24,431 nucleotides of DNA from a virus: the IMG/VR virus record IMGVR_UViG_3300045988_084596, positions 121,930 to 146,360 of that record; one strand, 5' to 3'. A model generated the notes under the pieces. That model saw only the letters and a program-made list of their open reading frames with translations. It did no database searches and was not told the origin of the DNA. Below, in pieces: positions 241-24,184 of the stretch. Position numbers and translations under genes: made by a program. Positions within the stretch are counted from its first letter, which is position 1. Each line of letters starts with the position of its first letter.

Positions 241-774
241 ATGGCGAAACACATGGTAAAATGTTTTTACTGTGGAGAAGTATTTGATGCATCAACCACC
301 CCATACGTTAAACCAAACTCAAGACGTTACGCTCATAAAACTTGTGCGCAAACGGCAGAAGAAAATAAAACTCAAGAAGAAAAAGATAAAGAATTATTAG
401 AAAAATATATAAAGGATTTATTTGGAATTAATTGTATCTCCCCAAAAATTAAAAAACAAATAGAAACTTTTAAAAAAGATAAAAATTATTCATATACAGG
501 GATATATAAAACATTAAAATATTTTTTTGAGATAAAAGGAAATTCTATTGAAAAGGCCAATGGTGGAATTGGTATTGTTCCTTTTGTTTATGATGAAGCA
601 TATCTATATTGGAGAGCATTGTGGGAAGCAAGAGAAAGAAATGAGCAGGTAGATATAAAAGAATTTATTTTGCCTGTAAGAGAAGTTCATATAGAGCCTC
701 CTCAGCGACAACCAATGAAACATATACGAAAGCTATTTACTTTCTTAAATGAGGAGGAAACACATGAAGAGTAA
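241..774 (+). CDS. zinc-ribbon protein (CxxC...HxxC); first gene of the replication operon, possibly a replication initiator or helicase loader
   Basis: 177-aa intact ORF with no in-frame TAG, RBS AAAGGAG. N-terminal C-x2-C...H-x3-C motif. Ends TAA and overlaps the helicase start by 11 nt. Confidence 0.6.
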   Translation: MAKHMVKCFYCGEVFDASTTPYVKPNSRRYAHKTCAQTAEENKTQEEKDKELLEKYIKDLFGINCISPKIKKQIETFKKDKNYSYTGIYKTLKYFFEIKGNSIEKANGGIGIVPFVYDEAYLYWRALWEARERNEQVDIKEFILPVREVHIEPPQRQPMKHIRKLFTFLNEEETHEE

Positions 775-2302
775 CTATGTAGATACAGCAGCAATTACTC
801 AAATAATTGGGTGTGTATTTAATAATGCCTCTATTCTCGATGATGCAGATAAATATATAATTCATGAAGATGATTTTCAAGAGGATTTTCACAAAATTAT
901 CTTTGGGAGTATCTATAATATTCATCTAACAGGCAGTCAAGTCAATATTGATGCAATTATAGATTATTTAGCGAATAGACCCAAATTTGATGCTATATTT
1001 AAACAAAATAAAGGTGTAGATTATCTTCTTGAAGCATCACAAAACGCTCGATAGGATACTTTTAATTACTACTATAATAGATTAAAAAAATTTACTCTAT
1101 TAAGGGCATATAATAATTTTGGCCTTGATGTAACCTATCTTTACGATCCAAATAATATTCTTGATACTAAAAAGAGACAAATGCAAGAAGATTGGTTAGA
1201 TAATACAAGTTTAGTTGAAATAGCTCATGCTATTGATGTAAAAATAGATGAAATCAAGAGTAAATATATTGAAGATGATTTAGGATTAGGGTATCAAGCC
1301 GGAGACGGAATCGACGATTTAATCAGTGATTTAGAACAACATCCAGAAGTTGGTATTCCTTTATATGGCCCATTGATTAATACAGTAACAAGAGGCGCAA
1401 GATTGCGAAAATTTTATTTGCGGTCAGCTGCTACAGGAACTGGAAAAACTAGATCAATGATTGCAGATGCTTGTAATTTTGCGTGTAATGAGATCTATCA
1501 TGATCAATTTGGCTGGATTAAAAACGGAACTTCTCAACCAACTTTGTTTATCGCGACAGAGCAAGATAAAGGAGAAGTGCAAACTATGATGTTAGCATTT
1601 CTTTCTGATGTAAATGAAGAACATATCTTGAATGGCCAATATTTTGATGGAGAAAAGGATCGAGTTCTCAAAGCCGCGGAAATTATTAAAAGAAGTCCGA
1701 TTTGGATTGAAGAATTGCCGGATTTTTCTTTGCAAGATGTAGAAAATAAGATAAAAAAGAATATCCGTGAACATGAAGTTAAGTATGTTTTATTCGATTA
1801 TTTACAAACATCTCTCAAGATTCTTGAAGAAATTAGTAAGAAATCTGGCGGAGTTAAATTAAGAGAAGATAATATCTTATTCATGCTTTCCGCAAGATTA
1901 AAAGATTTAGCAAATAAATATGGTATATTCATTATGTCTGCAACTCAATTAAATGCAGATTATTAGAATAGTGAAACACCAGATCAAAATTTGTTGCGTG
2001 GAGCTAAAAGTATTGCAGATAGAATTGATGTTGGCATGATTCTTCTTGGAGTTACAGATGAAGATTTGGTAAAACTTGATCCAATACTTGATAGCAATAA
2101 AAATCTTCTTCGTCCTAATTTAAAATTATCTATTTATAAGAATAGACGAGGATCATATAAAGGAGTTTACCTATGGTGTTCAGCAAATTTAGGTACTTGT
2201 CGTATATTACCACAATTCTGTACTAATTGGAGACATGAAATGATTAGTATTGAAGATATTAGAGTAATTGTAGATGAAGGTCCTGCGGCATGGGAAAAAT
2301 AA
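764..2302 (+). CDS. dnaB: DnaB-family replicative DNA helicase; one gene, with in-frame TAG at 1052 and 1964
   Basis: ORF-track pieces 749-1054, 1181-1966 and 1991-2302 are all in frame 2 and are separated only by TAG. N-terminal DnaB domain; Walker A SAATGTGKT; C-terminal KNRRG motif. RBS GGAGG 7 nt before ATG 764. Ends TAA. Confidence 0.85.
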
Positions 2303-2318
2303 TTTTGGAGGAATTAAT

Positions 2319-2495
2319 ATGAAAAACAATCAATCTTTAGAGTATCGTATGAGTAAAAAAATGTTTAATGCTATGCTTGCCGATAGAAGCGAGACGGAGA
2401 AGAAACAAAATCCTAAAGATTATGTTGCAAAAGTAATTAATGAGCAATTTGGTCTTAAAGGAACTGTAACAAATGTTTCCGTATATGATGCTTAA
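2319..2495 (+). CDS. small hypothetical protein (58 aa)
   Basis: RBS GGAGGAATTAAT then ATG 2319. Ends TAA. Confidence 0.5.
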   Translation: MKNNQSLEYRMSKKMFNAMLADRSETEKKQNPKDYVAKVINEQFGLKGTVTNVSVYDA

Positions 2496-2497
2496 TT

Positions 2498-3601
2498 ATG
2501 TCACGCTATTATGATAAAGATGAACTAAAAGGAAAATTAGAGTTAGAACAAATTTATGATTTAATTGAAGCATGGGGCGGTGAGCCTGAATATGTAGATG
2601 GTGGGCTCATCTCCCAAACTATATGTCATAATCTTCCAGGAGAGGGATCAAGAAAGTTATATTATTACGAAAATACAAAACTTTTTAGATGTTATACTGG
2701 ATGTATAGATCCTACTTTTGATATATTTGATTTATGTATAAAGGTTAAAAAAAAGCAAGAAGGTAAAAAGTGGGAACTATATAATGCTATGGATTATATA
2801 GCTGGATATTTTGGTTTTGATGGAATAGAACTAGAAGATGAAGAACAAGAATTAGAAGATTGGGATATCTTTAAAAGACATAATATTCAGTTACCAAAAC
2901 CTAAACAGCCTATTTGCTTGAAGGAATATAATCCGATTATTCTTACTCGATTTTCTTATCCTAGAATTGCTGGATGGGAAGCAGAAGGAATCTTACCCGA
3001 GGTTAGTAAAAGAAATTTTATTGGGTATTATCCGGGAGGAGGACAAATAACAATTCCTCACTTTGATATTAATAATAGATTAGTAGGAATTAGGGGAAGA
3101 ACATTATCTTCTGAAGATGCAGAAAGATATGGAAAATATAGACCTCTTATGGTGAACAGACAATTATATAATCATCCTTTAAGTATGAATTTATATAATT
3201 TAAACCATAGCAAAGAAAATATAAGAAAAGTAAAAGCTGCAATTATATTTGAATCTGAAAAGAGTTGTCTTATGTATCAGTCTTACTATGGGTACGATAA
3301 TGATATATCTGTAGCTTGTTGTGGAAGTAGTATATCTAGTTATCATATAGATTTACTTAAATCTTTAGGAGTTAATGAAATCATAGTTGCTTTTGATAGA
3401 CAATTTGTCGAAATTAGCGATGATGAATTTAAGAGATTGAAAGCAAAGTTAATTCATATATATAACAAATATAGTAAGAATGTACGCATATCTGCTATCT
3501 TTGACAAACGAATGATTTTGCCATATAAAGCAAGTCCTATAGACAAGGGACCGCAGATTTTTGAAGAGTTACTAAATGAAAGGATAATTCCTTATGAGTA
3601 A
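2498..3601 (+). CDS. dnaG: DnaG-like DNA primase (CHC2 zinc finger plus TOPRIM)
   Basis: CHN...FRCYTGC zinc-binding motif near the N-terminus. TOPRIM-like IIFESEKSC...VAFDRQF acidic motifs. 367-aa intact ORF, ends TAA. Confidence 0.8.
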   Translation: MSRYYDKDELKGKLELEQIYDLIEAWGGEPEYVDGGLISQTICHNLPGEGSRKLYYYENTKLFRCYTGCIDPTFDIFDLCIKVKKKQEGKKWELYNAMDYIAGYFGFDGIELEDEEQELEDWDIFKRHNIQLPKPKQPICLKEYNPIILTRFSYPRIAGWEAEGILPEVSKRNFIGYYPGGGQITIPHFDINNRLVGIRGRTLSSEDAERYGKYRPLMVNRQLYNHPLSMNLYNLNHSKENIRKVKAAIIFESEKSCLMYQSYYGYDNDISVACCGSSISSYHIDLLKSLGVNEIIVAFDRQFVEISDDEFKRLKAKLIHIYNKYSKNVRISAIFDKRMILPYKASPIDKGPQIFEELLNERIIPYE

Positions 3602-3881: not shown

Positions 3882-5633
3882 TTGGAATATTCATTAATTA
3901 ACCCAAGAAATTAGGATTATAGTGCTTTAGAGTAGGTATTAGTTAATAGAGGTATTAAATATGGTGATATATAGCATTATTTAACAGTATCAGAAAAAGA
4001 TAATTTATCTCCCTTACTTCTTAATAATATTGAAAGCGCTGCTAAGCTAATTATTAAGCACATTTTAAAAGATGATTCTTATATCTATGTCTAGGTAGAT
4101 AGCGACTGCGATGGTTACACCTCTTCTGCATTATTGCTAAATTATCTTCATGCGCAGTTTCCCTCTGCAATTAACAAGTTTGTTTATAACTTCCATTCTG
4201 GTAAAATTCATGGAATAAAACCAGAATTAATCCCCGATAATATTTCTCTTGTTATTGCACCGGATTCAAGCTCTAACGACTATCAAGAGCATGAAGAATT
4301 GGCTAATCGCGGAATTGATGTATTAGTTATAGACCATCACTTAGCTGATAAAATATCTGAATACGCCTGTGTTGTTAATAATCAGTTATGCGATTATCCA
4401 ACAAAATCGTTATCTGGTGTAGGAGTAGTTTATAAATTGTGTTAGTATATGGATAGTATTTGCGGAACTGCCTATGCGGACAATTACCTTGATATTGTAG
4501 CCACCGGTCTTGTAGGAGATATGATGGATATTAGAGATTTTGAAACTCATTATCTTATTCAATAGGGGCTACAGAGGTCAAGTCTCCGCAATCCTTTTAT
4601 TAAAGGTATGGCTGATAAAAATGCTTATTAGTTAGGCAGAGGAGATTTATCTCCTATTGGAGTAGCGTTTTATATTGTTCCTCTTGTTAATGCCATTACT
4701 CGTATGGGTACTCAAGATGAAAAGTAGATTTTATTTGAAAGTATGCTTGAATGGAAAGCATATGATCTTATTCCTTCTACTAAACGAGGATGTAAAGGGC
4801 AAGAGGAAACTAGATTAGAGCAAGCATTAAGAGTTTGCACTAATGTTAAGAATCGTTAGACTAGAACTAGAGATGCCGAAGTTGAACAAATAGAAAATAT
4901 TATTCAAGAAAAAAATCTATTATAGCATAAACTTTTAGTAATTAAACTAGAAGATATGTAGGTTGATAGAGGTATTACTGGTTTAATTGCTAATGAATTA
5001 ATGAGTAAGTATAAGCGCCCCGTTATTCTCTTATCAAAGACTGTAAACAATGAACAAGATGCTTGGGAGGGATCAGCTAGAGGATACGAAAAGTCTAAAT
5101 TAAATGATTTTAGACAATTTGTAAGAGATTCAAATTTAGTCTTTTTAGCTGAGGGGCACGCAAATGCTTTTGGCTTTGGCATTTATGAAAAAGATTTTGA
5201 AGATTTTATTATATGGTCAGACAATCAATTAAAAGATATAGAATTTTCACCAAGCTATAAGGTAGATTTTATTTACTCTATGTCAGATATTAATTCTAAA
5301 GATATATTAGAACTAGGTAATTCTAAGTATCTTTGGGGATAGAATATCGACGAACCGTTAATTGCGGTAGAAAATGTTGCAGTAACAAATGACATGATTA
5401 GTCTTATGTCACGAGACAAGAATCCTACTTTGAAGATTCAATTACCAAATGGAGTTACTTGCATCAAGTTTAAATCAAGCGAAGAGGAGCTAGAAGATTT
5501 ATCTAGCGAATTAGGTTGCGTGAGTATAAATTTGATTGGTAAACCAGAAGTAAATAGATACTTCGGTAGTGTGACACCACAAATTATTATTACAGATTAT
5601 GAAATTATAAGTAGATAGAAGTATTACTTTTAA
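3882..5633 (+). CDS. DHH/DHHA1 phosphoesterase, RecJ-like single-strand DNA exonuclease; 13 in-frame TAG codons
   Basis: A single frame-0 reading from the TTG at 3882 (after the in-frame TAA at 3876) to TAA 5631-5633 has no TAA or TGA. TAGs lie at 3912, 3933, 3972, 4092, 4443, 4563, 4629, 4725, 4857, 4923, 4959, 5340 and 5616. Motifs: YIYV(Q)VDSDCDGYTS (DHH motif I), VIDHHL (DHH), GHANAFGFG (DHHA1). Start codon uncertain. Confidence 0.75.
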
Positions 5634-6523: not shown

Positions 6524-6784
6524 ATGGAAGAATTAAAACAAACTATAAAATTTTTAGATTCTATTCAAATAGATAAGTATATAATAGGTTATATGGATAT
6601 ACACGATATTATGGATAGAATAGAAGATGATTATGGCGCATTTTTAGAAGATCATCCTATTTTTGAAGGATATGTTTTTAATTGGATGACTTCTGATGAA
6701 TTTGCTGATTATTTAAGGAAAAAGGGTTATAGAGTTCAAGAAAATATTAGTTATGAGGTTTGGAAAAATGGAATTAACTCGTAA
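6524..6784 (+). CDS. hypothetical protein (86 aa)
   Basis: RBS GAGGT then ATG 6524. Acidic small protein. Ends TAA and overlaps the next gene. Confidence 0.55.
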   Translation: MEELKQTIKFLDSIQIDKYIIGYMDIHDIMDRIEDDYGAFLEDHPIFEGYVFNWMTSDEFADYLRKKGYRVQENISYEVWKNGINS

Positions 6785-7949
6785 ACAAGAGGAAGGATTG
6801 CGCATTGCAATAGATAGATATAATCACAACGAGCCCTATACTGTAATAGCGGGTTACGCAGGTACTGGAAAAAGTACCTTGATTAATTTTATTATAGCAG
6901 CTCTTGAGGTAGATCCAGAAGAAGAAGTTGCATATATTACTTTTACAGGGAAAGCCTCAGAGGTATTGCGAGAAAAAGGTTGCCATAATGCTATGACCGC
7001 GCATAAATTGTTATATTATAGTAAGCAAATGCCAAATGGTAAATTTTTCTATAAACCAAGGACTGTTCTTGAAAAGCCTTATAGAGTAATTGTTGTAGAT
7101 GAAGTAAGTATGCTTCCTAAAGATATGTGGGATTTGCTTTTAAGTCATAATATCTATGTAATAGCTTGCGGAGATCCTTTTCAGATTCCTCCAATAGATA
7201 AGAAACAAGATAATCATATTTTGGATAATCCACATATTTTTCTTGATGAAGTAATGCGTCAAGCAAAAGAAAGTGATATTATTTGCCTTAGCATGGATAT
7301 TAGAGAAGGAAAGAGATTATCTCCTTTTAGCGGTCATGATGCTCAAGTTTTTAAGAAAAATGATCTGTGCGATGGAATGTATTTTTGGGCAGACTAGATT
7401 CTTGTATCTACCAATAAAAGTAGACATGATATTAATTCTTATATTAGAGATGATTTAGGCAGAGGATTTGAGCCAGAAATAGACGATAAGATTATTTGTT
7501 TGCGGAACTGTTGGGATACTTGCTCTGAAAAACATGAAAATCCACTCATAAATGGCTCTGTTGGATATATTAAAACTAAAAGAATGGAATCTATTGATTA
7601 TATCCTCGCTGGAAAGTTAGTATCTGCTCCTGTTTTATTTGCAGATATTGAAACAACAAATGATACATATAGAGAAGTTGGTATTGACTATACCGCTTTA
7701 ACTACTGGAGAAAAGTTTTTTACTCCTCAACAAGAATATTTAATTAGGAGAAATAAAGAAAATCCAGATCTCCCTATTGAGTTTAATTTTGGTTATGCAA
7801 TTACTGGACATAGAGCGCAAGGTTCACAATGGGATAAGGTTTTAGTATTAGAAGAATCATTTCCATTTGATAAAATTGAACACGCTAGATGGATATATAC
7901 TACAGTTACAAGGGCCATTGAAAAACTTACATTGATATTAAAGAATTAA
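6768..7949 (+). CDS. SF1B RecD/Dda-like ATP-dependent DNA helicase; one in-frame TAG at 7395
   Basis: ORF pieces 6753-7397 and 7500-7949 are in frame 0 with a stop-free bridge at 7398-7499. Walker A GYAGTGKST; DEVSM Walker B; motif VI-like GHRAQGSQWDKV. Ends TAA. Confidence 0.8.
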
Positions 7950-7992: not shown

Positions 7993-10900
7993 ATGGGTAT
8001 GTACTTTAACAATCATGCGCATACGGAGTTTAGTAACTTGCGTTTGCTAGATTGTATAAATAAACCTGAGGCACTGATTGATAAAGCTATTGAAGTCGGA
8101 TTGACGGGAATTGCTATCACAGACCACGAAAGCCTTTCGGCGCATATGAGAGTAAATAAATATGCAAAGAAAATTAGGGAGCAAAATCCCGATTTTACGA
8201 TTGCATTAGGAAATGAGATTTATTTAACTGATACAAGAGATTTAGGACAAAAGTATTATCACTTTATCCTAATCGCGAAAGATAAAGAAGGATATAGAGG
8301 ACTAAAGGAGTTATCCTCTATTGCTTGGATGAATGGATATTATGACCGTAGAATGGAACGCGTTCCTTTGCTTAAATCTGAGCTTAAAGATGTAATGCAG
8401 AGATTTAAGGGTCATATTATTGGGACTACTGCTTGTATTGGTGGAGAACTTGGTAGTTCCATTTTAAATCTTCATAATTGTGAAGAAATTAAAGATGAAA
8501 TTAACGCACAGAGATACCATAATCAAATTGTTGATTTTATGACATTCTGCATTGATGTATTTGGTAAAGATGATTTTTACATTGAATGTGCTCCCGCTTC
8601 TTATCCAGATCAAATTATCGCAAATAAAAGAATGTTAAGTATCTCTGAGGCTTTTAATATAAATATGTGTATTGGAACAGATGCGCATTACTTAACAAAA
8701 GAAGATAGATATGTTCATAAAGCGTATCTTAATTCTAAAGGTGGAGAACGAGAGGTTGATAGTTTCTATGAGTTTACTCATTTGATGGATGAACAAGAAA
8801 CTAGAGAACTTCTTAGATTGAGCTATGACGAAGGCATAATTGATTGGATTTTTAAATGCTCAAACGAAATGAAAGATAAAATTGAATTTTATTCTCTTGA
8901 ACGTCATCAATCAATTCCAGAAGTAGAAGTAACAGATTATAAAAAAGGGTTTGTACCATATCAGTGGGAAGATAAATATCCTGTTCTATCTAGTTTGATT
9001 TGGAGCGATAATATTCAAGAAAGATATTGGGTAAATGAATGTATTATTGCTTTGCAGAAAAAAGGTTTATTTAATGATCCTAGATATCTTGAAAGATTAG
9101 AAGAAGAAGCAAGAGTAAAGAGAGTGATTGGAGAAAAACTAGGAACTTGTATGTTTGCATACCCAAATACTCTAAAACATTATGTAGATTTGTTCTGGAA
9201 TTGCGGAAGTACCGTAGGTGCAGGGCGAGGATCAGCTTGTGCTGCTTTGAACCATTATCTTCTTGGAATCACTCAACTAGATCCCATTGAATGGGATCTT
9301 CCTTTCTGGCGCTATATTAACGATGAAAGAACTGAACTTGGTGATATTGACCTAGATTTGGCACCATCAAAAATTCAAAAGATTTTCGCGGAGATTAGAA
9401 AAGAACGAGGAGAACTTGGCTTAGTACAAGTTTGTACTTTTGGCACAGAAGGAACTAAATCTGCGATTTTAACAGCTTGTCGAGGCTATCGTTCAGAAGA
9501 TTATCCTGATGGAATTGATGTAGATATGGCTCAATATATGAGTTCTCTTATTCCACAAGAAAGAGGTTTCTTATGGCCTATTGAGGATGTAGTTAATGGT
9601 AATCCGGAAAAAGGCCGTAAACCTGTTACGGTTTTTGTAAATACTGTGAATCAGTATCCTGGATTATTAGATATTATTACTAGAATACAAGGACTAGTAA
9701 ATAAACGTTCAAGTCACGCTTCTGGAGTAATCTTATTTGATCAAAATATTTTTGATACAGCCGCGGTAATGAGAACTCCAAAAGGAGCATTAATTACTCA
9801 ATGGGATCTTCATGATCAAGAAGCCGCTGGATCTGTCAAGTACGATTTCTTGCTTACAGCAGTACAGGATATTATTATTCAAACTATTGAGCTATTGCAA
9901 AAAGATGGCGCTATTGAAAAAGATTTAACATTGCGTGAAGTCTATAATAAATACCTTCATCCATCTGTCCTCCCACAAGACGATAAAAAAATGTGGGATG
10001 CTCTTGCCAATGGAGATGTTCTTGGCTGTTTCCAATTTGATTCTAGTGTTGGCGCTCAAGCAGCAAAAAAGATTAAGCCTCAAAATCCGCACGAAATGGC
10101 GGACGCTAATGGATTGATGAGACTAATGACTGCGGAAAAGGGTGCAGAAACTCCAATGGAGAAGTATGTTCGTTTTAAAAATAATATTTCTCTTTGGTAT
10201 AAAGAAATGGATCAGTAGGGTTTAACAAAAGAAGAACAAAAAATTCTTGAACCTCATTTCTTACGTTCTTATGGTGTGCCTCCCAGCCAAGAACAAATGA
10301 TGACTATGCTTCAAGACCCAAATATTTGCGGATTTACGTTAGCTGAAGCTAATACTGCAAGAAAAATAGTTGGTAAGAAGCAAATGAACAAAATTCCAGA
10401 GTTGAGAGAAAAAGTTTTAAATTCTGCGAAATCTCCAGCATTGGGGCAATATGTATGGAATTATGGCATCGGTCCACAAATGGGCTATAGTTTCTCTATT
10501 ATCCATGCTCTTGCTTATAGCTTTATTGGTATGCAAACTCTTTATCTTGCTACCCATTTTAATCCAGTATATTGGAATACAGCATATCTTATTGTCAATA
10601 GCGGTGCCATTAATGAAGAAGAAGGAGAACAATCAGATTATACCAAGATTGCTAAAGCCATTGGAGAAATTCGTAATGCTGGTATAAAAGTGTCTTTGGT
10701 TGACATTAATCATTCTGATTTTGGTTTTAAACCAGATGTTGAGCATAATCAAATCTTGTTTGGTTTAAAAGGGTTATCTAATGTAAACAATGATTTAATT
10801 AAAACCATTGTTGATAATCGCCCCTATGTATCTTTAATTGATTTCTTTAATAAAGTACATCCAAATAAACAAGCAATGATTTCTTTAATTAAGGGCGGAG

Positions 10901-11874
10901 GGTTTGATCAGTTTCATCCTAGGATGGAAGCAATGATTCAATATATATGGATTACCTGTGATAAAAAGAAAAGAATTACTTTACAAAATCTACCTGGGTT
11001 AATGAGATATAATCTCATTCCTGATGATGAAAAATTTGTAATGCCCAAAAGAGTTTACGAATTTAATAGATATTTAAAAGCAGAATGTAAAGACCCATAT
11101 AATGCAGGTAAGTATAAGCTAGATGAAAGAGCAATAACTTTCTTAGTTGAAATTGATTGCGAAAAACTGCTTGAAACAGATAATTTAGTTTGGTATATTG
11201 ATATAAAATCTTGGGATAAGGTTTATCAAAGTTACATGGATGTATTTAGAGCATGGATTGCAGAAAACAAAGAAAAGATTTTAGATGACTTAAATACTAC
11301 AATCTTTATGGAAGATTGGAAGAAATATGCTTCTGGTAATATTTCTTCTTGGGAAATGGAATCTTTGTGCTTTTATTATCATGACCATGAATTATCAAAT
11401 ATCAACAATAGTAAGTATGGTTTTGTAGACTTCTTTAGTTTACCAGAAGAACCTCAAGTAGATAAGGTATTTAAAAAGGGTGCTTCATTAATTCCTATCT
11501 ATAAGCTATATAAGATTTGTGGAACTTGTATTGCAAAAAATAAAGTAAAAAGTACGGTATATCTTCTTACCACTACTGGAGTTGTAGCGGTTAAGTTTAG
11601 ACAAGAATACTTCGCGTTGTTTGATAAGCAAACTTTCCAGAGAAACGAAGATGGCACAAAAAAGGTCATAGAAAAATCATGGTTTAATAGAGGTAATATG
11701 ATTGTTGTGCAGGGAATTAGACGCGGAGATGAATTTGTAACAAAGAAATATGCAAGTTCTGGAGGTCATCAACTTTATCACATTGATGAAATTGTCAATG
11801 GTACAGACTTAATTTTAAGAAGTGAAAGAAAACAAGGAGAAGAAGAGGATGAAGATAGTAGCGTTAATGGGTGA
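7993..11874 (+). CDS. dnaE: DNA polymerase III alpha subunit (PHP domain N-terminus); one in-frame TAG at 10216
   Basis: ORFs 7993-10218 and 10276-11874 are in the same frame, separated only by TAG. The conserved SYGVPPSQEQMM...GFTLAEANTARKIVGKK helix-hairpin-helix segment spans the junction. PHP histidines HAHTEFS, ITDHES. RBS AGAGAGGT. Ends TGA. Confidence 0.85.
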
Positions 11875-12316: not shown

Positions 12317-12449
12317 AAATATAAAACTCTTAAAAACGACACCTTAGAAGATATTGATGTCGCTGTTGATACTATATTTGGACAATTTTATTAAATTAAT
12401 AATCCCTATCTCTTATATATAATATACTCGCATAAAGAGGTGGATTTAT

Positions 12450-12881
12450 ATGTATTGTATATATTTGCATAGAAATAAAATAAATAATAAAGTATATATT
12501 GGACAAACCAAATTTGGAGATAATCCAAATAAGAGATGGCAAAATGGTAATGGATACAAGGAAAATATATCTTTTTATTATGATATATAGAAATATGGAT
12601 GGAATAATTTTGAACATATAATTTTAGAAAATAATCTTACGCTAGATGAAAGTAATAAGTTAGAAAAGCAATATATATCATATTATAATTCTACCAATCC
12701 CTCTGTTGGATATAATACAATGCCTGGTGGAGGAAAAAGCGAAAAGATTCAAGGTCCAAGTGATGCATTGAACTCATTCATTTCTTTATACTATAATGAT
12801 AGTAATGGAATATTAAAAAGCAAAAAGACTTTAGAATCTTTACAAAGGGAAAAGTAGAGATATATACAAAAAACGAGATAA
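12450..12881 (+). CDS. GIY-YIG family homing endonuclease (free-standing); 2 in-frame TAG (12588, 12855)
   Basis: MYCIYLHRNKINNKVYIGQT...R...KYGWNNFEHIILE follows the GIY...YIG...R...KYG..NFEF.ILE pattern. RBS AAAGAGGTGG. Ends TAA. Confidence 0.7.
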
Positions 12882-15110: not shown

Positions 15111-15580
15111 AGTATGCAGGTATTATAAAAAATGACTTTTCTGCCGCACCTGGGGTGTCTTTGAGTTTTTTTACATAGGGATGTCCTCATAGATGTCAAG
15201 GTTGCCACAATCAAGAGACTTGGGATTTTAATGGAGGAAAAGAATTTACCCATGAAACCCTTAATTCAATCTTAGAAGGGCTTACTGCAAATGGAGTTAA
15301 AAGAACTCTATGTATTATGGGCGGCGAGCCACTATGTCCAGAAAATACATTTCTAACTCATTTGGTAATACAAACCGCAAAAGAAACAATTCCTGATTTA
15401 AAGGTTTATTTATGGACTGGATACTTGTATGAAGATTTAAAAAATTCAACAGATACAGTTATTTAGAATATATTCCAATTAGTTGATGTGCTAATTGATG
15501 GGCCATATATTGAACATGAAAGAGATATTACGGAACCTCTTAGAGGAAGCCGCAATCAAAAAATAATTTATCTAAAATGA
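15107..15580 (+). CDS. nrdG: anaerobic RNR activating enzyme (radical SAM); 2 in-frame TAG (15176, 15464)
   Basis: ATGA overlap with the nrdD stop. FFT(Q)GCPHRCQGCHN CxxxCxxC radical-SAM cluster motif. Invisible in the ORF track because it is split into pieces under 60 aa. Ends TGA at 15578. Confidence 0.75.
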
Positions 15581-15609
15581 ACTTTGTAAAGAGTATTTTA
15601 GGAGGATTA

Positions 15610-16119
15610 ATGATAGCAATAGCTAGCTATATCTACTTATCTGTTGGAGGTATAGTTGGAGCTATTATGTTTTCCATTGGCCTACTGACTATATTAAATA
15701 TGTAGTTTAAATTATTTACAGGTTCAGTTGGTTATATCAAGAGCAAAAATGATATAAAAGATAACTTCATTATTTTAATAGGAAATATTATTGGGGCGTG
15801 CGGGATCTTAGCCTTTCCGCACGCAGCCGCTCTATCTCTAGTCTCTGCTAAGATCGCAATCCCACTATATTTAGTTTTCTTAAAGGGGATGGTTTGTGGT
15901 ATATTTATATATTCGGCAGTATCCTCGTTTAAAAGAAATAAAGATTATATGGTGCCAGTCTGCGTAACAGGTTTTATATTATTCGGCGGAGAACACTGTA
16001 TTGCAGATCTTTGTTACACTTTGGCCGCAGGTGTGCTCTCTATTGATGTAATATTATTTTTAATAGTAGTTACAATAGGCAATGCTATTGGTGCAATTAT
16101 TGTTGACAGAATAAAATAA
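15610..16119 (+). CDS. hydrophobic integral membrane protein (about 169 aa, 4-5 TM); one in-frame TAG at 15703
   Basis: RBS TAGGAGG then ATG 15610. Same frame as ORF 15889-16119. Hydrophobic G/A/I/L-rich throughout. Ends TAA. Confidence 0.55.
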
Positions 16120-16155: not shown

Positions 16156-16500
16156 ATGACTTTATACGAGCTAAATCAAGCGGGATATGCCTCCCTTCCA
16201 AAAATGACAAAGGCTGAATTAGAGAAAGCTAAAGGAAATATTATCACATTCTTAGATTCCAATGATTCTAGATATTATATGATGCTTAATCACGATAATA
16301 AATATTTTACTTTATTTACCTATGAAAACGATGTAAATAAAAATAAAATGGCAAGCGAGATTATTTCTGTTTCTAAGACACTTGGAGAAATCAAGGCAAT
16401 AGAGATAAATGGAAATATTGTAGAAATTTGGATTTTACATGGAGAGAAATGTGATATGTATGCGTTCTTTGATTATACAAAAGGGGTGATATAGGTATGA
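16156..16500 (+). CDS. hypothetical protein; TAG at 16492 read through to TGA 16498-16500
   Basis: The ORF track ends at TAG 16492-16494. Two codons later the real TGA forms an ATGA overlap with the next gene start, the same coupling seen at nrdD/nrdG and dut/ruvC. Confidence 0.55.
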
Positions 16501-17008: not shown

Positions 17009-17575
17009 ATGAGTGTATATTTTGAGAAAGTAAGTCGCTTTAGTGACATTGATCTACCTATTCCAACCCGCGCGACCGCCAATTCCGCAGGTTATGATTT
17101 CGTAGTCGCAGAAGATACAGTTCTACCTCCAATGAATTTTTTAACTTCTAAAATTCAAGACCATATTTTTGAAAAAGATAGTGACAAGGATTTTTATGGA
17201 TTTGTGAGCCCTTTTACTCTTGATGATATGGCCAATCTTACTAAAGAATTAAAGTCTAAGATTACTCTTGTATCAACAGGAATGAAATGTCATTTAAATC
17301 CTGGTCAATATCTTGAATTAAGTGTTCGCAGTTCTACTCCTCTTAAACATTGGATTATTTGCGGAAATAGCGTTGGTATTATTGATGCCGATTATTGTGA
17401 TAATCCAGATAATGAAGGAGAGATCTTTTTCCAGCTTGTTAATTTATCTCCTTTTGCTATTCAGTTAAAGCGTGGAGATAAAATTGGACAAGGAATTATT
17501 AAGAGTTATCAAATTACTGATGACGATAATGCAACTGGAGAAAGACTCGGTGGATTCGGAAGCACATCTAAATGA
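17009..17575 (+). CDS. dut: dUTP diphosphatase (trimeric dUTPase)
   Basis: dUTPase motifs: RATANSAGYDF; GIIDADY; C-terminal RLGGFGSTS. RBS GGAGGAATAAT. Ends TGA. Confidence 0.8.
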   Translation: MSVYFEKVSRFSDIDLPIPTRATANSAGYDFVVAEDTVLPPMNFLTSKIQDHIFEKDSDKDFYGFVSPFTLDDMANLTKELKSKITLVSTGMKCHLNPGQYLELSVRSSTPLKHWIICGNSVGIIDADYCDNPDNEGEIFFQLVNLSPFAIQLKRGDKIGQGIIKSYQITDDDNATGERLGGFGSTSK

Positions 17576-18051
17576 GTAATCTATTATCACTCGATTAGAG
17601 TTCGAAGATTACCGGATATGCGGTCTTTGAAGATAATAAGTTAAAAACTTTTGGTAAATTTGCTGTTGAAGATAATAATATAGATACTAGATTAGTAAAA
17701 ATAAGATAGAAGATTAAAGATCTTATTGAATAGTATCATATAGATGAAGTAGTTTTTGAAGATATATAGTAGTAGAATAATATTTCTAATAATGTTTAGA
17801 CTTTTAAGATTTTAGCAGAAGTATATGGGGTAGTTTCTGAATTACTAGAACAAGAAAAAATTCCCCATTCTTCTATTTTAGCAGTAACATGGAAATCTTT
17901 ATTGGGTATAAAAGGAAAAACTCGACCAGAGTAGAAAAAAAATGCTCAGAATTATGTTTTTTATAATTATGGGGAAAAACCCACACAGGATGAAAGTGAC
18001 GCTGTTTGTATCGGCCTTGCGCATATTAAATAGCATCAATGCGCTTGGTAA
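17572..18051 (+). CDS. ruvC: RuvC-like Holliday junction resolvase (phage or lactococcal type); 9 in-frame TAG including TAG-TAG-TAG at 17767-17775
   Basis: ATGA overlap with the dut stop. MSNLLSLD(Q)SSKITGYAVFED. EVVFEDI(QQQ)NN. C-terminal ESDAVCIGLAHI acidic catalytic motif. No ORF-track entry because of TAG fragmentation. Ends TAA 18049-18051. Confidence 0.75.
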
Positions 18052-18123: not shown

Positions 18124-18555
18124 ATGTTTGCTTTTATTACAGAACATATAGTAGAAATTCTTTTTGGTCTAATTTCCGCCGGAGCGTTGGCTTTTTGTAG
18201 ATACTTATATAAATAGTTAATGGCATATAAAAAAATGTTATAGGAAAAAGAAAATAATGATATAGTAGAACTTATTGACGAAAAATTAAAACCAATAGTA
18301 GAAGATATTGAAGAATTAAGAACATATATACGGAAAATAGAAGATAAAGAAAGACAAGATTTAACATTAATTATAGCTTCATATAGATTCAGACTTGTTT
18401 AGCTATGTAAAATATATATAAAGCAAGGATATATGACTCAAGATTAGTATGATCAACTAACAGAATTTTACAAACTATATCATTCTTTAGGTGGTAATGG
18501 ACAAGCTAAAGAATATTATGAGAAAACCATGGAGTTAGAAATTAGATCAGAATAA
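18124..18555 (+). CDS. membrane-anchored hypothetical protein (N-terminal TM, helical C-terminal domain); 4 in-frame TAG
   Basis: ATG 18124 is 5 nt after the GGAGG embedded in the hairpin arm. A single frame runs to TAA 18553-18555. N-terminal FAFITEHIVEILFGLISAGALAF hydrophobic segment. Confidence 0.55.
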
Positions 18556-18560
18556 AAAAA

Positions 18561-18586
18561 ATGGGGAACTCACTTGAGTTCCCCAT
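18561..18586. terminator. bidirectional hairpin terminator between convergent + and - modules
   Basis: atggggaactc pairs with gagttccccat (11-bp stem, 4-nt loop), flanked by an A8 run (18553-18560) and cttcttt. It overlaps the last codons of the - strand gene. Confidence 0.6.
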
Positions 18587-18896
18587 CCTTCTTTAAGCGA
18601 TTAAAAATAGAATTAGTCATATTTATTATTTCCTAGCCATATGTAGCAATTAAATCAGCTAATAATTCTTCTTGTTCGATAGACAATTCTATTCCATAAC
18701 TAAACATTGCAGCGTGCGTTAACTCATGACATAAAACTTTTTTCATCATTAATGGAGATAATTCTCCATTAATATAAATACCTTTAGTTTCATTATCACA
18801 AGCTCCTATCGTTAATTGTCCATCGCTTCTAATTAACATAGGATGAATTGGAGAAGTTAAAAATAATTTCCATCCTTCTCCATTAATATTAAACAT
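18570..18896 (-). CDS. HExxH zinc-metallopeptidase-like small protein; one in-frame TAG at 18633
   Basis: HELTHAAM motif. ORF-track end 18633 is a TAG. The frame continues 21 codons to TGA (rc 18570-18572). Confidence 0.6.
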
Positions 18897-19503
18897 GGTT
18901 TAAAGAAGATATTTTTGTAGCAAGAGCAGAAATTTTCTTTTCTAATAACTGTCTTTCTTCTGGGCTTGCGTCATCAATCATTTCAACTAAATCTTCGCTT
19001 AATTCTTTCATGTATTTATCTAATTCTTTCATCTTTATTTCTTTATCTTTATGAAGCTCTTTTGATTCCATATACATCCGACGTATCATAGGACTACGAC
19101 CTTCGCGAGAATCTCTTAAATCCATTGGAAATTCTTTCTCGTTATAATATATTGGTCTATCTCCATAGTTTCTGCTGCTATCCTGCATATCTCCTCTATC
19201 TGATTCAGTATATCTCCCTTGAGAATCTCTTGAACGAGGATAGTACATTCTACCCCATTCATTTCTGTCCATATCTCTATCGGGTAAATAATATGGAGGA
19301 GTAATTGGAATGTAATACTTTCTATGTTCTTCATCTTTCTCTTCCATTGCTTTTACAATAGAACAGTAGTACATTGCCTGCTCTAAATCTTTTATCATAT
19401 CAATAGCTTCGCCTAATTCATGAGTGTCTACATTATGAATATCACTTAGCTATGATTGAACACACCCAATAAGAGTTTCTTTCATATGTTTAAGTCTTTC
19501 CAT
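18889..19503 (-). CDS. low-complexity R/D/S/Y-rich protein with coiled-coil C-terminus (204 aa); one in-frame TAG (rc 19450-19452)
   Basis: In-frame ATG at 19503 with RBS AGGGTGG, 35 codons upstream of the ORF-track start. Ends TAA. Overlaps the next gene by 8 nt. Confidence 0.55.
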
Positions 19504-19956: not shown

Positions 19957-20862
19957 TTAGCATCCGCAACTATTCACGCTATAGCAACAGTTGGGATTTG
20001 GGACTACATATGCGGGAACTGGACAATCACGGCCTAATCTACGAATGATCTCAGAAGTCTGAGCTTCTTGATTGGCTGTAATAAAGGCGTTCTGAGCCTA
20101 CTGAGAAGCCGCTAAACGAAGAGCCTGATTCTCATTCTGCAAGTCATTGATTTTCTCCTGGCAGAGATAATCAAGAATTGCACGAGTTCCAGCGTTTTGA
20201 CTGTCAATAATATCACGAGTATTATTAGACATAGAAGTTTGAAGAGCGTTAACATTTGTTGCTATATTATAGTTAACGTCAGCAAAGCCTCTTTCAATCT
20301 GACGGCCTGTCTCGCAGCAACAATCTGCAATCTAGCGAGAAATAGCGTTTTGATTTGTGAGATTATCAAAGCTTGCTTGTTGAATTGCAGATCTTGTATC
20401 ACAGCAACAATTTGCTAATTGGGTAGCTAAAGCATTCTGACCTTGCATTAAAGCTACATTGGTATTATTGAAACCTTGCTGTGTTTGATAGCCTAACTGG
20501 CAAATAGCGCTATCAACACCATGGAAACCATTAGTAATAGAATTATTTAGAGCATAAGTACTATCACAAATTCCCTGATGAATAGCGGTAACGCCATTTT
20601 GGAGATTTTGTAATGCAAAACCTTCATTGATATCGGCACGAGTGGCCCATCCCTGGCCAGAAGGAGATCCGAATCCACTACCATTAGATCCAAAGCCTCC
20701 AAAACCGCCGAATCCATTTCCCCATCCAGCGAAACAGAATAGGAAGAGAATTATAATCCACCAGGCTCCTCCGTCATTCCACATTCCGCCGTTATTACGA
20801 TCGGTACCGCCAGTAGCTGCGGCAATATCTGCTAAAGAATACCCACTGTTAGAATTGAACAT
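19957..20862 (-). CDS. membrane-anchored Gly-rich, Cys-triplet repeat protein (301 aa); 2 in-frame TAG (rc 20332, 20098)
   Basis: Strong RBS AAAGGAGGAACTTAA then ATG 20862. TM segment AWWIIILFLFCFAGW. GFGGFGGFGSNGSGFG linker. Repeats carrying NCCCDTR and DCCCETGR. C-terminal CPVPAYVVPNPNCCYSVNSC. Ends TAA. Confidence 0.6.
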
Positions 20863-20885: not shown

Positions 20886-21119
20886 TTAAAGGCCGAGCAT
20901 TTTCTTAAAGTTGGCAAACTCCTTATCGTAATCTAATCCTCTTTGAGACATAAGATTTCTAGCTATTTGTTCGATCTCTTCAGTTTTATTCTATTTGGCT
21001 AAGTCTAACAAATTAGCTCCAAATGGATTATTCCCCATCTAGTTTTCTAACATATTTAATGTCAACTACTGAGGATTCTATCCATTCCTAATCATTTGAA
21101 TTAATTCCATTGGGTTCAT
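20886..21119 (-). CDS. small hypothetical protein (77 aa); 5 in-frame TAG
   Basis: RBS AAGGAGAATATAAA then ATG 21119. A single frame runs to TAA (rc 20886-20888) with TAG as the only interruption. Absent from the ORF track. Confidence 0.45.
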
Positions 21120-21131: not shown

Positions 21132-21560
21132 TTAAAAATCTAATTTTGGCTTTGGTTCCTACTATTGCGTCGTGGTCTATTTATTATTAGGCTGCGGCGC
21201 AATTTTTTCTTTTAATTGAGCAAGTACAGTTTCAAATTCTTCTCTAGTTACAAACTGAGCAGGATTGATAACTGGTTCGGTTGGCATATTTTTTAATTCA
21301 TAAATATTAAGTGTAGAAGTTCCATCTAAATTTATCTATTTTGTATATATTCTTTTATTCGCTAAATCAGGAAAGAAAAATATAGAACCATCAAAGTCAA
21401 TGCTAGTCGCTTTTACTTCTTCAATAGAAGAAACTGGACGACCTTTAATTCCAATCTAGGGCTATTCCACATATGGCATCCTCTGCTGCGGTACATAAGG
21501 GGTCGCCGCATATTGAGGTTGCTATTGTTGTGGCATATAGTATGGATAATTAACTGCCAT
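21132..21560 (-). CDS. hypothetical protein with Q/P/Y-rich N-terminus (142 aa); 7 in-frame TAG
   Basis: RBS AAAGGAGGTAAAACT then ATG 21560. Contains MPQQ(TAG)QPQ and QTTTQ(TAG)(TAG)EPKP, so TAGs are embedded in CAA/CAG glutamine runs. Ends TAA 21132-21134. Confidence 0.55.
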
Positions 21561-21660: not shown

Positions 21661-21668
21661 TATAAAAA

Positions 21669-21696: not shown

Positions 21697-22086
21697 TCAT
21701 GATGCTCTATTTTCATTAACTGCGGCTTCAATGAGATTAGTTAGATAAGTATTTAAGTCGCCAGTTGTCTCAATAATATATTGTTTTGCATCAGATGATA
21801 AGATCTCTAATACAGATTCCATAGTCTTATCAAATGCAATTTTTTGAGCCTCTGCATCAAAAGCGCCCTATTCCTTTAAGCTATTAACATAAGTCTGATT
21901 TGTAGCTATTACGCATTTGGTAATAGTATCAAATATCATAGTGGTGTATTTCTAAGCTGTTTCATTCTCTGTTTTAGAATTTAACTCATCTCGTTTAGCA
22001 GAGAGGAAATCTACGAGATATTTTGTTAAAATACCAAGCAGAGGAAGAATACAAAGCTAGAATATTTGAATAACAATTTCAGGCAT
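21697..22086 (-). CDS. putative holin (single N-terminal TM, amphipathic tail); 3 in-frame TAG
   Basis: RBS AAGGAGGAATTAAT then ATG 22086. IVIQIF(Q)LCILPLLGIL transmembrane segment followed by a charged helical tail. Ends TGA (rc 21697-21699). Confidence 0.5.
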
Positions 22087-22137
22087 ATTAATTCCTCCTT
22101 TATATTATATATAAAACAATAGGAAGATAATTTAACT

Positions 22138-22835
<698 letters not shown>

Positions 22836-22879
22836 GCGTTTTGATTTATATAAAATTTTATTATATAATATATATAAGA

Positions 22880-23128
22880 TTACCAAGGATAATCTCTAGC
22901 AATCAAAACATCGCCTTCTGGCATTATAAATTTATATCTACCATCTGAATAAACATCATCAATAGAGCTTCCATCTTTTATTAAATATACATTATCTGAT
23001 ATTCCTGCACTCATAGGACTGCTGTAAACAATTTCCCCAGGGGTTGCTCTTACTGGATAGCCATATTGAAGGCTTGTTTTATCTATTATTGAATACTTTT
23101 CCGTCTGAAAAGTTTGGTTAATAATCAT
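22880..23128 (-). CDS. hypothetical protein (82 aa), no TAG
   Basis: RBS GGAGGTG then ATG 23128 (ATGA-coupled to the upstream gene). Ends TAA. Confidence 0.55.
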   Translation of the reverse strand: MIINQTFQTEKYSIIDKTSLQYGYPVRATPGEIVYSSPMSAGISDNVYLIKDGSSIDDVYSDGRYKFIMPEGDVLIARDYPW

Positions 23129-23523
23129 GTTCGCACCTCCTACAAAATTATATATATCTATATATCATTTTCTGGAATTTTTTGGGCTTTAAAAGTTAAA
23201 CTATTTTCTTGTTGATTTATACACTAAATGCCTGAATTATTATATATATCTATATCTTTTATTGTTGGAGTTGGACAAATTATCTATTTGCCCTCATCGC
23301 TCAATACTCCAATTATATTTACTGTTTGAGTATTATTAGACCAAGCTGATGAATATAGAGTTATCAATTTAATAATAGGTTTAAGTGCAGAATTTGCTAA
23401 TATAGTATTGAACTCCTTTTCAGTTCCAGTAAACCCTCCTTCTTTAGCTGTTTCATAAGCAGATTTGCCGTTTAATCCAGGCTACCCTATTCCAGCAACC
23501 TTTTTCCCATTTACTTTTATCAT
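23125..23523 (-). CDS. tail-fibre-associated protein with GKSAYE...GF.GTE motif (132 aa); 5 in-frame TAG
   Basis: RBS GGAGGTAGT then ATG 23523. GKSAYETAKEGGFTGTEKEF motif, common in phage fibre and BppU-type proteins. The frame reads through the apparent AT-repeat intergenic region to TGA (rc 23125-23127). Confidence 0.55.
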
Positions 23524-23545
23524 AGTATAATACTACCTCCTAAAT

Positions 23546-24184
23546 TTAATCAATATTACCTCCAGTAGAAGTAATTGTAGCGGGACCAATAATTTTATAT
23601 GCTATAACTTGATAATTATTATTTATTAATATAGCTCCCAAACTTTCATATGCAGACTGAGGAGTAATTTTAAGTCCTGAAGAAGAACCTGCATTTATAG
23701 TTATAATACTATTTTTTATCACTTTATAATTATTTTTCTACACTACCCATACTGACATTGGCGCATTTTCATATTCTATTATTACAGTACATCCACTTAT
23801 ACCCCTCAATGATTCAAATATAATATCCACCGTTTCTATAGGGGTTTCTGTTGTAATCTATCCTATCTTATCTGCCATAGTTGAAAAACTATCGGTCGCC
23901 GCAGTTTCTACTCCTTTGTCAGTGACTGCGGTCGCTATTAGGGTTTTGCCCTCACTGACATCGGTAAAAAGCTCATCAATAGCTGATTGAACATTAGTGG
24001 CTTTCATACTTGAAGTTTCATTATTATATTCTATTGATGATGCAGTAAGATTTTCATTATCTTCTTCATCAAATTCAATAGTATAAGGTCCTAACCCTAA
24101 TGTTTCTCCCATTTCTGCGCTACCGCCTCCTGGTACGGTAATAGCATTTTGGTTTTTAACCTATCCAGTTAAAATACATTCCAT
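23546..24184 (-). CDS. tail fibre / receptor-binding protein (212 aa); 3 in-frame TAG
   Basis: RBS AAAGGAGAAAATATCT then ATG 24184. 24 codons upstream of ORF-track start 24112, and continuing through TAG 23858 to TAA 23546-23548. NVQSAIDELFTDVSEGKTLIATAVTDKGVETAATDSFSTMADKI resembles a conserved phage tail-fibre segment. Confidence 0.6.

Follow-up and report, generated by a model that had tools for sequence, protein, structure and literature searches.

TAG as a probable glutamine codon in an SPbeta-like phage lineage of the human gut

What does TAG stand for in a phage whose genes appear to be interrupted by this codon again and again? The question is raised by 24,431 nucleotides of the IMG/VR virus record IMGVR_UViG_3300045988_084596 (positions 121,930 to 146,360), a stretch to which we refer as the window. 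Under the standard bacterial code, the window falls apart into 50 open reading frames (ORFs) of at least 60 amino acids, with 21 of 32 genes broken. The original prediction had foreseen that most genes would look broken in this way, and it proposed that TAG is reassigned across the whole element, probably to glutamine. In our analysis the window contains the replication module and the beginning of the late module from a tailed phage of about 145 kb. This phage very probably uses genetic code 15, in which UAG would specify glutamine, would never act as a terminator and would be decoded by a phage-encoded tRNA with the anticodon CUA (tRNA-CUA).

Reading frames and the identity of the TAG codon

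If only TAA and TGA are taken as stop codons, the window can be read as 32 contiguous genes, of which 21 occupy the plus strand as far as 18555 and 11 the minus strand from 18570 onwards. After refinement of the starts, 95% of the window is coding. Two genes begin with a codon other than ATG, TTG at 3882 for a RecJ-like exonuclease and GTG at 22761 for a serine recombinase, each with a Shine-Dalgarno site upstream; sites of the AGGAGG type are frequent in the window. In total, 69 in-frame TAGs are spread over 21 of the 32 genes. Terminators are TAA (24) or TGA (8) and in no case TAG, and outside the window the ORFs of the early and the structural region likewise have no lone terminal TAG. The reading frame is maintained past 69/69 TAGs, without a single in-frame TAA or TGA in the 32 genes. 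About 70 TAGs in about 24 genes had been predicted; the number of TAGs and the lack of TAG terminators hold, but the number of genes is lower. Pfam domains and PDB homologues align straight over the TAGs of the window, in line with a reassignment across the element. Judged from the sequence, TAG acts as a sense codon in this phage. Public gene calls already continue past it and report a DnaB of 512, a PolIII alpha of 1293 and a RuvC of 159 amino acids.

The strains closest to the window indicate which amino acid is meant. In 12 strain-level relatives, the TAG sites of the window that vary are CAA (15) or CAG (4) in 19/19 cases. In the opposite direction, 21 sites with TAG in the relatives have CAA (10), CAG (8) or once each GCG, TGG and GAA in the window, i.e. 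a glutamine codon in 18 of 21. TAG positions are kept or swapped with glutamine codons over 50-99% divergence, and in the evolution of this lineage TAG is interchangeable with CAA and CAG.

For the diverged relatives, all 32 proteins of the window were aligned by tblastn to 263 fetched loci (labelled L with a number where they are named below), and alignments with less than 90% identity were taken as the diverged set. It comprises 154 loci and 2,772 TAG columns. Opposite a TAG of the window, glutamine was found 1,104 times, TAG 411 times, glutamate 190 times, lysine 151 times and tryptophan 3 times. Under substitution profiles for each residue, the log-likelihood is -4779 for glutamine, -7349 for glutamate and -7438 for lysine, and the lead of glutamine over E, K, H, N and S exceeds 2,500 log units. 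The mean fraction of glutamine is 0.45 in TAG columns and 0.53 in CAA/CAG columns, and at most 0.045 in columns of other residues. TAGs on the subject side stand mostly opposite a TAG or a glutamine of the window. The alignment to homologues that had been proposed as a check thus comes out in favour of glutamine, and that TAG encodes glutamine is strongly supported by this codon evolution. A recoding of TAA was considered as well and rejected: the 41 TAAs inside tblastn alignments, never more than 2 in one locus, are consistent with alignments that overrun the ends of genes.

TAG makes up 20% of the glutamine-type codons of the window (69 versus 273 CAA and CAG). Its use is uneven, with a share per gene from 0.02 to 0.69 (chi-square p = 5e-9), and 11 of the 32 genes contain no TAG at all and are intact under the standard code. 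An even use over the whole element, as the original prediction had implied, is therefore not what the window contains.

Suppressor tRNA, TAG gradient and alternative readings

A tRNA-CUA had been proposed as something to look for in the rest of the phage, and the same species has one, located some 33 kb upstream of the window (L159:3710-3785, the same gene as L267:12790-12865). It was reached by walking from the window in four steps through IMG/VR. The carrier is IMG/VR contig 3300045988_081499 (114 kb). It matches the DNA next to the two ends of the window at 99.5% and 98.9% identity and contributes what remains of the genome, so that the whole amounts to about 144 kb. In the window and the first 10 kb on each side no tRNA genes were found, and at the gathering threshold Rfam gave no match in the window or five flanking loci. 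The tRNA-CUA belongs to an array of at least 17 tRNA genes, which also includes tRNA-Gln UUG and tRNA-Gln CUG. In a relative with about 90% identity the array contains a tmRNA gene as well (L273:1410-1725, tag peptide DNDYFENYLAA), and a relative with 72% identity has a tRNA with the anticodon UUA, similar to an ochre suppressor (L274:17624-17698).

The tRNA-CUA has a canonical cloverleaf (Rfam tRNA model, 61 bits) with an encoded CCA end, a GG D-loop, the T-loop GTTCGAATC, an anticodon stem of 5 bp, G73 and a U1-U72 mismatch. Relatives retain this tRNA at about 90% identity, and it is 84% identical to tRNA-Sup-CTA no. 2 of phage phAss-1, with compensatory changes in the stems. The 1:72 mismatch is kept in three lineages, as U-U here, C-U in the relative with about 90% identity and U-C in phAss-1. 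In the tRNA set that we compared, the combination of U1 and G73 is common to tRNAs for glutamine and asparagine. Typing by overall similarity was ambiguous (Cys and Trp 0.73, Asn 0.72, Gln 0.68) and was not used to name the residue. The suppressor tRNA of phAss-1 was assigned to glutamine by tRNAscan-SE, with the copy unspecified (Babkin et al., PMC10607447).

Two well-known suppressors of Escherichia coli offer a comparison. SupE is a tRNA-Gln with the anticodon CUA and su+7 is a tRNA-Trp with the anticodon CUA, and su+7 is charged largely with glutamine since U35 is an identity element of glutaminyl-tRNA synthetase (GlnRS). Recognition by GlnRS is favoured by a CUA anticodon with U35, by G73 and by a 1:72 pair that is weak or missing. 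In the phage, the tRNA-CUA has G73 and the conserved 1:72 mismatch. The E. coli suppressors, however, are single-copy cellular genes of partial efficiency, whereas the phage depends on suppression for most of its proteome. Suppressor tRNAs associated with a theta (HDV-like) ribozyme have also been described, in which the ribozyme cleaves within 5 nt of the tRNA end (PMC10879173). Around the tRNA-CUA (L159:1-10000, E < 0.1), Rfam returned only tRNAs and one sub-threshold chance match, the presence of a theta-specific model in Rfam being unconfirmed, and by Rfam no such arrangement is seen here. The tRNA gene is followed within 21 nt by AAGGAGG with an ATG.

The tRNA-CUA heads a run of early genes on the plus strand, for NAD salvage, an RNA ligase, a Thg1-like protein and PhoH, which is followed by gyrase, and from here the use of TAG rises along the genome. 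Of the glutamine codons, TAG accounts for 1.4% (2/146) in the 25 early genes behind the tRNA cluster and for 9.5% in the stretch from gyrase to YorG. Within the window the figure is 16.5% for the plus strand and 28% for the minus strand, which carries the holin and the tail-fibre-like gene, and it reaches 48.6% (88/181) in the structural block beyond the window. One structural protein of 929 amino acids has 28 TAGs. Within the replication module, TAG is rare in the genes for PolIII alpha (1/52 glutamine codons) and NrdD (1/30), where the single TAG is CAG or CAA in other strains, while the RecJ-like (13/28) and RuvC (9/13) genes are rich in it. A similar distribution was described by Borges et al. 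(bioRxiv 10.1101/2021.08.26.457843), with the machinery for the code change in standard code, late genes in the alternative code and variable replication genes.

From this arrangement a course of infection can be proposed. The early genes and the tRNA array would be expressed while the standard code of the host prevails. A host enzyme would charge the tRNA-CUA with glutamine, and the tRNA would compete with host release factor 1 (RF1). With more and more of the suppressor tRNA at hand, the replication genes with few TAGs could be translated in full. The structural genes, holin and tail genes among them, have TAG at up to half of their glutamine codons and would come next, and the TAG gradient would act as a timing device.

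Genes for nucleic acid processing are located 20-30 kb upstream of the window, about 6-15 kb downstream of the tRNA-CUA. They encode a Thg1-like tRNA 3'-5' polymerase, an RNA ligase, a metallophosphatase and a P-loop protein (L081:2670-3941, L081:9551-10405, L042:546-1639); the last is small and a putative kinase by its GxxGxGKS motif alone. Together they look like a tRNA repair set downstream of the tRNA array. They are followed by NAD-salvage genes, one of them a phosphoribosyltransferase by Pfam and NAMPT-like by analogy with the phAss-1 annotation, and by a PhoH-PIN protein. One could imagine a translational clock of three steps set by TAG density (about 1% in early, 10-16% in replication and about 50% in structural genes) and by the maturation of the one suppressor tRNA with its 1:72 mismatch. 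The Thg1-like protein, the RNA ligase and the kinase/phosphatase would edit or repair its 5' end and thereby switch decoding on, and the RecJ-like and RuvC proteins would be delayed to packaging. We consider this scheme quite improbable.

Several points weigh against code 15 in this phage. The support lies at the level of nucleotide and predicted amino acid sequences. The tRNA-CUA is located on a contig of the same species and not on the molecule from which the window came. Its body is not clearly of the glutamine type by sequence, so the identity of the residue rests on codon evolution and not on features of the tRNA. In distant PDB homologues, TAGs of the serine recombinase (resolvase) stand opposite Q, V and E, and the TAG of NrdD stands opposite H. 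Such residues are expected at variable positions, and the Sin resolvase and NrdD structures were set aside as a vote on the residue since they are too diverged. Release factor 2 (RF2), an RF1 antagonist or a GlnRS, which had been suggested as further components, were not seen in about 88 kb by a motif scan only. A release-factor motif of the GGQ type is missing from the same 88 kb, with about 55 kb (positions 16167-71621 of the IMG/VR contig) outside the scan. Finally, the 13 TAGs of the RecJ-like gene would need efficient decoding despite host RF1.

In a first alternative, TAG is ambiguous. It would still stop many ribosomes, especially early, and the TAGs near C-termini would be leaky stops that yield two forms of a protein or throttle its synthesis. 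The lack of an RF1 antagonist or RF2 in the scanned part would fit, as would the avoidance of TAG in early genes, which suggests that it is still read as a stop at that stage. TAGs also fall within the final 10 codons of a gene somewhat more often than CAA/CAG do (7/69 versus 5/273; Fisher p = 0.003). The enrichment, however, fits former TAG terminators equally well, and most simply the near-terminal TAGs may be relics of such terminators that are now decoded through to the next TAA or TGA. Examples of near-terminal TAGs are located at 16492, 5616, 12855, 18031, 23140, 21159 and 21162. The TAG at 16492 is CAA in the strains L009, L010 and L012, and the one at 18633 is CAA in three strains, so that these two ORFs truly extend to TGA. 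At RecJ-like site 580 the relatives have Q, T or A and their proteins run on. Moreover, RuvC with 9 TAGs and the RecJ-like protein with 13 need efficient read-through in order to be made at all. Ambiguous decoding is therefore unlikely.

In three places, the original prediction had seen a TAG that is read through for a few codons onto a TGA embedded in an ATGA start overlap. This applies to the gene at 16156..16500, which ends with TAG GTA TGA and overlaps the ATG of the next gene at 16497. The other two did not stand. The RecJ-like gene ends with TAA at 5631-5633, the overlapping ATG is out of frame, and the next gene begins with the ATG at 5673 behind AAGGAGG. In the M78-like metallopeptidase gene, the TGA at 18570-18572 follows 20 codons after the TAG at a convergent junction by a hairpin, without a start overlap.

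Secondly, TAG could encode another residue such as tryptophan, pyrrolysine, glutamate or lysine. ARAGORN names the tRNA-CUA 'tRNA-Pyl', a label that reflects only the CTA anticodon, and among the tRNAs of the phage itself the closest is tRNA-Trp(CCA) with 72% identity, compared to 55-68% for tRNA-Gln. The lead of glutamine in the likelihoods, the 3 tryptophans in 2,772 columns and the exclusive exchange with CAA/CAG among strains make this very improbable. For pyrrolysine in particular, the structure of tRNA-Pyl is atypical and unlike the canonical cloverleaf found here. Pyrrolysine decoding was rejected on the cloverleaf and the swaps with CAA/CAG only; pyl genes were not searched for.

Thirdly, code 15 might be that of the host bacterium, with the phage merely following it. 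The host is pointed to only by co-binning in metagenome-assembled genomes (MAGs) of Oscillospiraceae or Eubacterium, which leaves some room for this idea. The difference between the early genes and the structural genes, with 2/146 and 49% TAG, implies however that infection must start in a cell with the standard code, and the phage has its own tRNA-CUA beside tRNA-Gln UUG and CUG. We know of no bacterium in which TAG means glutamine. Published recoded phages infect standard-code hosts (bioRxiv 10.1101/2021.08.26.457843), and a recoded host is hardly credible. The idea that the TAGs are nonsense mutations of a decaying element, or assembly or sequencing artefacts, draws on the 21 genes broken under the standard code and has next to no probability, as it is already refuted at the sequence level by conservation, i.e. 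by the frames that stay intact after every TAG, the same layout in hundreds of assemblies and the TAGs conserved or swapped with glutamine codons.

Genes of the window and its surroundings

The plus strand begins with a YorH-like protein of 177 amino acids (241..774) that has no TAG. Further genes without TAG start at 2274, 2498 (primase-like, YorJ), 3594, 5673 (tail lysozyme), 6524, 16497, 16708, 17009 (dUTPase), 19506 and 22880. The DnaB-like helicase (517 amino acids, 749..2302) contains two TAGs, at 1052 and 1964 as predicted, and the Pfam domains DnaB (residues 18-113) and DnaB_C (210-476) each extend across one of them. At site 102, 21 related loci have Q; at site 406, 22 have K and 13 have Q.

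The RecJ-like exonuclease, similar to YorK of SPbeta, has 583 amino acids (3882..5633) and ends with TAA; its TTG start is preceded by AGGAG. The Pfam domains DHH, DHHA1 and RecJ_OB extend across TAGs, which are located at 3912, 3933, 3972, 4092, 4443, 4563, 4629, 4725, 4857, 4923, 4959, 5340 and 5616. In relatives, site 327 is Q in 33/35 and site 488 in 33/39. Public calls begin this gene at the ATG at 4449, which yields 394 amino acids and loses the DHH domain. Similarly, they begin the serine recombinase at the ATG at 22614 (158 amino acids) and lose the catalytic serine of YARVSS. The true starts are likely the TTG at 3882 and the GTG at 22761.

A RecD-like superfamily 1 helicase of 398 amino acids (6753..7949) has one TAG at 7395, flanked by the Pfam domains AAA_30 and UvrD_C_2; at this site 41 relatives have Q and 12 have TAG. 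The DNA polymerase III alpha, similar to YorL of SPbeta, has 1293 amino acids (7993..11874) and ends with TGA. Its single TAG at 10216, which is CAG in the strains L002-L006, was correctly located before, but not in the HhH segment as stated. It encodes residue 742 inside the Pfam finger domain (649-813), and the HhH domain comprises residues 897-976. It is followed by a guanylate kinase (181 amino acids, 11849..12394), whose Pfam profile Guanylate_kin is covered from 2 to 178 of 182 across both TAGs (12212, 12227); site 127 is Q in 52 and TAG in 9 relatives.

A GIY-YIG endonuclease of 143 amino acids (12450..12881, Pfam GIY-YIG) has TAGs at 12588 and 12855. A further GIY-YIG gene of 221 amino acids is inserted in one strain between RuvC and dUTPase (L010:15555-16220, corresponding to about 17575 in the window). 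Genes of this type resembling homing endonucleases (window 12450-12881; L001:5886-6572) contain TAGs themselves and are mobile genes adapted to the code of the phage.

The anaerobic ribonucleotide reductase NrdD (737 amino acids, 12897..15110, ending with TGA) aligns to PDB 8p23 over residues 4-734. Its single TAG, confirmed at 13806, is Q in 82/87 relatives and CAA in the strains L007, L009 and L010. The NrdG activase (157 amino acids, 15107..15580, also ending with TGA; Pfam Fer4_12 at residues 15-154) has TAGs at 15176 and 15464, and site 24 is Q in 69/79 relatives. A membrane protein similar to formate/nitrite transporters (180 amino acids, 15577..16119; Pfam Form_Nir_trans 3-175) has one TAG at 15703, and a hypothetical protein of 114 amino acids (16156..16500) contains the TAG at 16492, two codons ahead of the TGA in the ATGA overlap.

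The RuvC-like Holliday junction resolvase (159 amino acids, 17572..18051) covers the Pfam RuvC profile from 2 to 148 of 148. It contains 9 TAGs (17596, 17707, 17731, 17767, 17770, 17773, 17797, 17932 and 18031), including the predicted triple at 17767-17775; those at 17707, 17767 and 17773 are CAA in L009, L010 and L012. In the same three strains 4/4 TAGs (18214, 18241, 18400, 18445) are CAA in the next gene, which encodes a hypothetical protein of 143 amino acids (18124..18555; PHROG 4105 and 4257).

The plus and minus blocks converge at 18556-18590, where the GC skew flips its sign. A G+C-rich hairpin (GGGGAAC-N8-GTTCCCC) at this position overlaps the TGA of the M78-like gene and is probably a bidirectional terminator; the region is possibly the replication terminus.

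On the minus strand, the M78-like metallopeptidase (108 amino acids, 18570..18896, ending with TGA; PF06114 weak in public calls, PHROG 1233 and 87) has one TAG at 18633-18635. It is followed by a hypothetical protein of 204 amino acids (18889..19503), whose TAG at 19450 is Q in 41 relatives, and by a hypothetical Cys/Gly-rich protein of 301 amino acids (19957..20862; PHROG 16490), whose two TAGs (20098, 20332) are CAA or CAG in 6/6 relatives (L007-L012). A hypothetical protein of 77 amino acids (20886..21119) has TAGs at 20991, 21039, 21066 and 21078, and relatives have Q or TAG at 3/4 of them. The hypothetical Gln/Pro-rich protein (142 amino acids, 21132..21560) has seven TAGs (21159, 21162, 21177, 21336, 21456, 21462, 21522). 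Two of the glutamine-rich contexts reported earlier are present in it, MPQQ-TAG-QPQ at 21522 and TAG-TAG-gaa at 21159-21164. They are translated as MPQQxQPQ and TTQxxEPK, and TAG and CAG/CAA are swapped in both directions among strains.

The holin (129 amino acids, 21697..22086, ending with TGA; PHROG 13712, E = 3e-33) has TAGs at 21868, 21952 and 22057. The serine recombinase of the resolvase/invertase type (207 amino acids, 22138..22761) has TAGs at 22177, 22333, 22396 and 22618 and covers the Pfam Resolvase profile from 2 to 143 of 145; its GTG start is preceded by GAGGTG. Alignment to PDB 2r0q (Sin) gives 5e-35, with Q opposite the first TAG. Both genes are carried on a segment of 1,144 bp, which is bracketed by inverted repeats of 26 nt at 21636-21661 and 22806-22831 (TTGCCAAAATTTT...GGCAA-like, 85% complementary). 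The layout resembles an invertible segment of the Hin type with its own invertase. No inversion was observed, as the orientation was the same in 6/6 related contigs examined.

The last two genes encode a hypothetical protein of 132 amino acids (23125..23523, ending with TGA) with TAGs at 23140, 23158, 23224, 23284 and 23482, and a tail-fibre-like protein of 212 amino acids (23546..24184; PHROG 26419, tail fiber) with TAGs at 23738, 23858 and 24161, the first of which is CAG in L011. A diversity-generating retroelement is located at L008:4632-8490, about 0.6-4.5 kb past the right end of the window. It contains a reverse transcriptase of 405 amino acids (RVT_1) and a 40-nt pair similar to template and variable repeats (6156-6195 and 6879-6918, 83% identical). 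One repeat copy is located at the C-terminus of a tail-fibre-like Big_3/DUF6273 protein of 541 amino acids. In L007 there is no intact call for the reverse transcriptase gene.

Relatives, host and place among recoded phages

By look-ups of exact proteins, the window was found within contigs of 137-149 kb from many human-gut assemblies, with 83-99.8% identity to the window. The same architecture occurs in hundreds of independent assemblies, and contigs with one protein of the phage occur in more than 1,300 blocks of a public assembly index. In contrast, megablast against 50,697 GenBank phage records gave no match. The nearest annotated phages by PolIII alpha, all with about 41% amino acid identity, are Geobacillus GR1, phAss-1, the SPbeta group and Enterococcus EF1.

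Hosts of the best annotated relatives are Geobacillus, Bacillus and Enterococcus. Two contigs of 148 kb, with a PolIII alpha of 89-90% identity, were binned in MAGs of Oscillospiraceae and Eubacterium. The host is probably a member of the Clostridia, co-binning being weak evidence. A Firmicutes host had already been suggested from the Shine-Dalgarno sites, and the SPbeta-like module, the relatives infecting Bacillota, the AGGAGG sites and the Clostridia bins agree with it.

In SPbeta and EF1 the gene order is the same as here, namely YorF, AAA_24 ATPase, YorH, DnaB-like, primase-like (YorJ), RecJ-like and PolIII alpha (YorL, about 41% identical), as compared from public Pfam calls and PolIII alpha matches. 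With the wider phAss-1 / SPbeta-like / EF1 group the phage has its replication module and genome layout in common, in the YorF-to-YorL order as well as in gyrase, NrdD/NrdG, ThyX and a tRNA array ahead of NAD-salvage genes. The code of SPbeta is the standard one. For EF1, no stop-codon recoding was described (Babkin et al., PMC10607447).

phAss-1 (OQ749652) is a human-gut phage of about 136 kb with TAG as glutamine and a predicted Clostridia host (Babkin et al. 2023, PMC10607447). Both phages have a large tRNA array with a tRNA-Sup-CTA, followed by NAD-salvage genes, gyrase, NrdD/NrdG, ThyX and PolIII alpha. phAss-1, however, has three Sup-CTA genes, two of which adjoin NrdD, whereas here a single copy was found, in front of the early metabolic genes, and NrdD has none nearby. 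Members of the proposed Phassvirus group share 80-86% nucleotide identity; with no megablast match and a PolIII alpha at 41% amino acid identity the phage falls outside this genus, and it belongs to a different genus or higher taxon.

Phages with code 15, TAG meaning glutamine, were reportedly described by Ivanova in 2014. Code-15 gut phages include crAss-like phages (Yutin 2021, PMC7886860) and the Lak, Garnet, Amethyst, Agate and Topaz clades (bioRxiv 10.1101/2021.08.26.457843), and in crAss-like phages glutamine at TAG was detected by mass spectrometry (Peters 2022, PMC9523058). NCBI taxonomy contains a 'Caudoviricetes code 15 clade', which includes phAss-1 and Lak phages. With these phages the present one appears to have in common that TAG means glutamine and is no terminator, that the phage has a tRNA-CUA, that TAG is enriched in structural and lysis genes and that replication genes are variable. 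The Agate clade, with 154 +/- 27 kb, fits the genome of about 145 kb and a Firmicutes-type host, as compared by published size and TAG recoding only. RF2 is encoded in some Lak and Agate genomes; none was found in the scanned part of this phage. From Crassvirales it differs by the SPbeta-type replication genes with PolIII alpha, the Shine-Dalgarno sites, the Clostridia bins and the relatives infecting Bacillota. Membership in that order was rejected on replication genes, hosts of relatives and MAG bins, not on TerL/MCP.

Enough sequence was aligned for 88 related loci. Of these, 67 contain at least three in-frame TAGs in the homologous genes, and 20 lack them altogether. Lineages with recoding are thus interspersed with standard-code ones, and here too this phage and the code-15 clades are alike, in that close relatives mix both kinds of genomes. 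Such interleaving is known for other clades (bioRxiv 10.1101/2021.08.26.457843; PMC10607447).

Recoding itself is well known in gut phages, and this phage is an ordinary case of code 15 that introduces no new principle. The lineage is an SPbeta-like one, abundant and absent from GenBank phage records, and an addition to the known code-15 gut phages. In practice, 21 of the 32 genes of the window would look broken where copies of the phage in MAG bins are annotated with the bacterial standard code, and even gene callers that read TAG still truncate the RecJ-like and recombinase genes at internal ATGs. A well-sampled lineage associated with Clostridia joins the code-15 phages. With hundreds of strain variants and an unusually clean TAG gradient, it would be a good natural system for studying how suppression works against RF1 and how recoding may time late expression.

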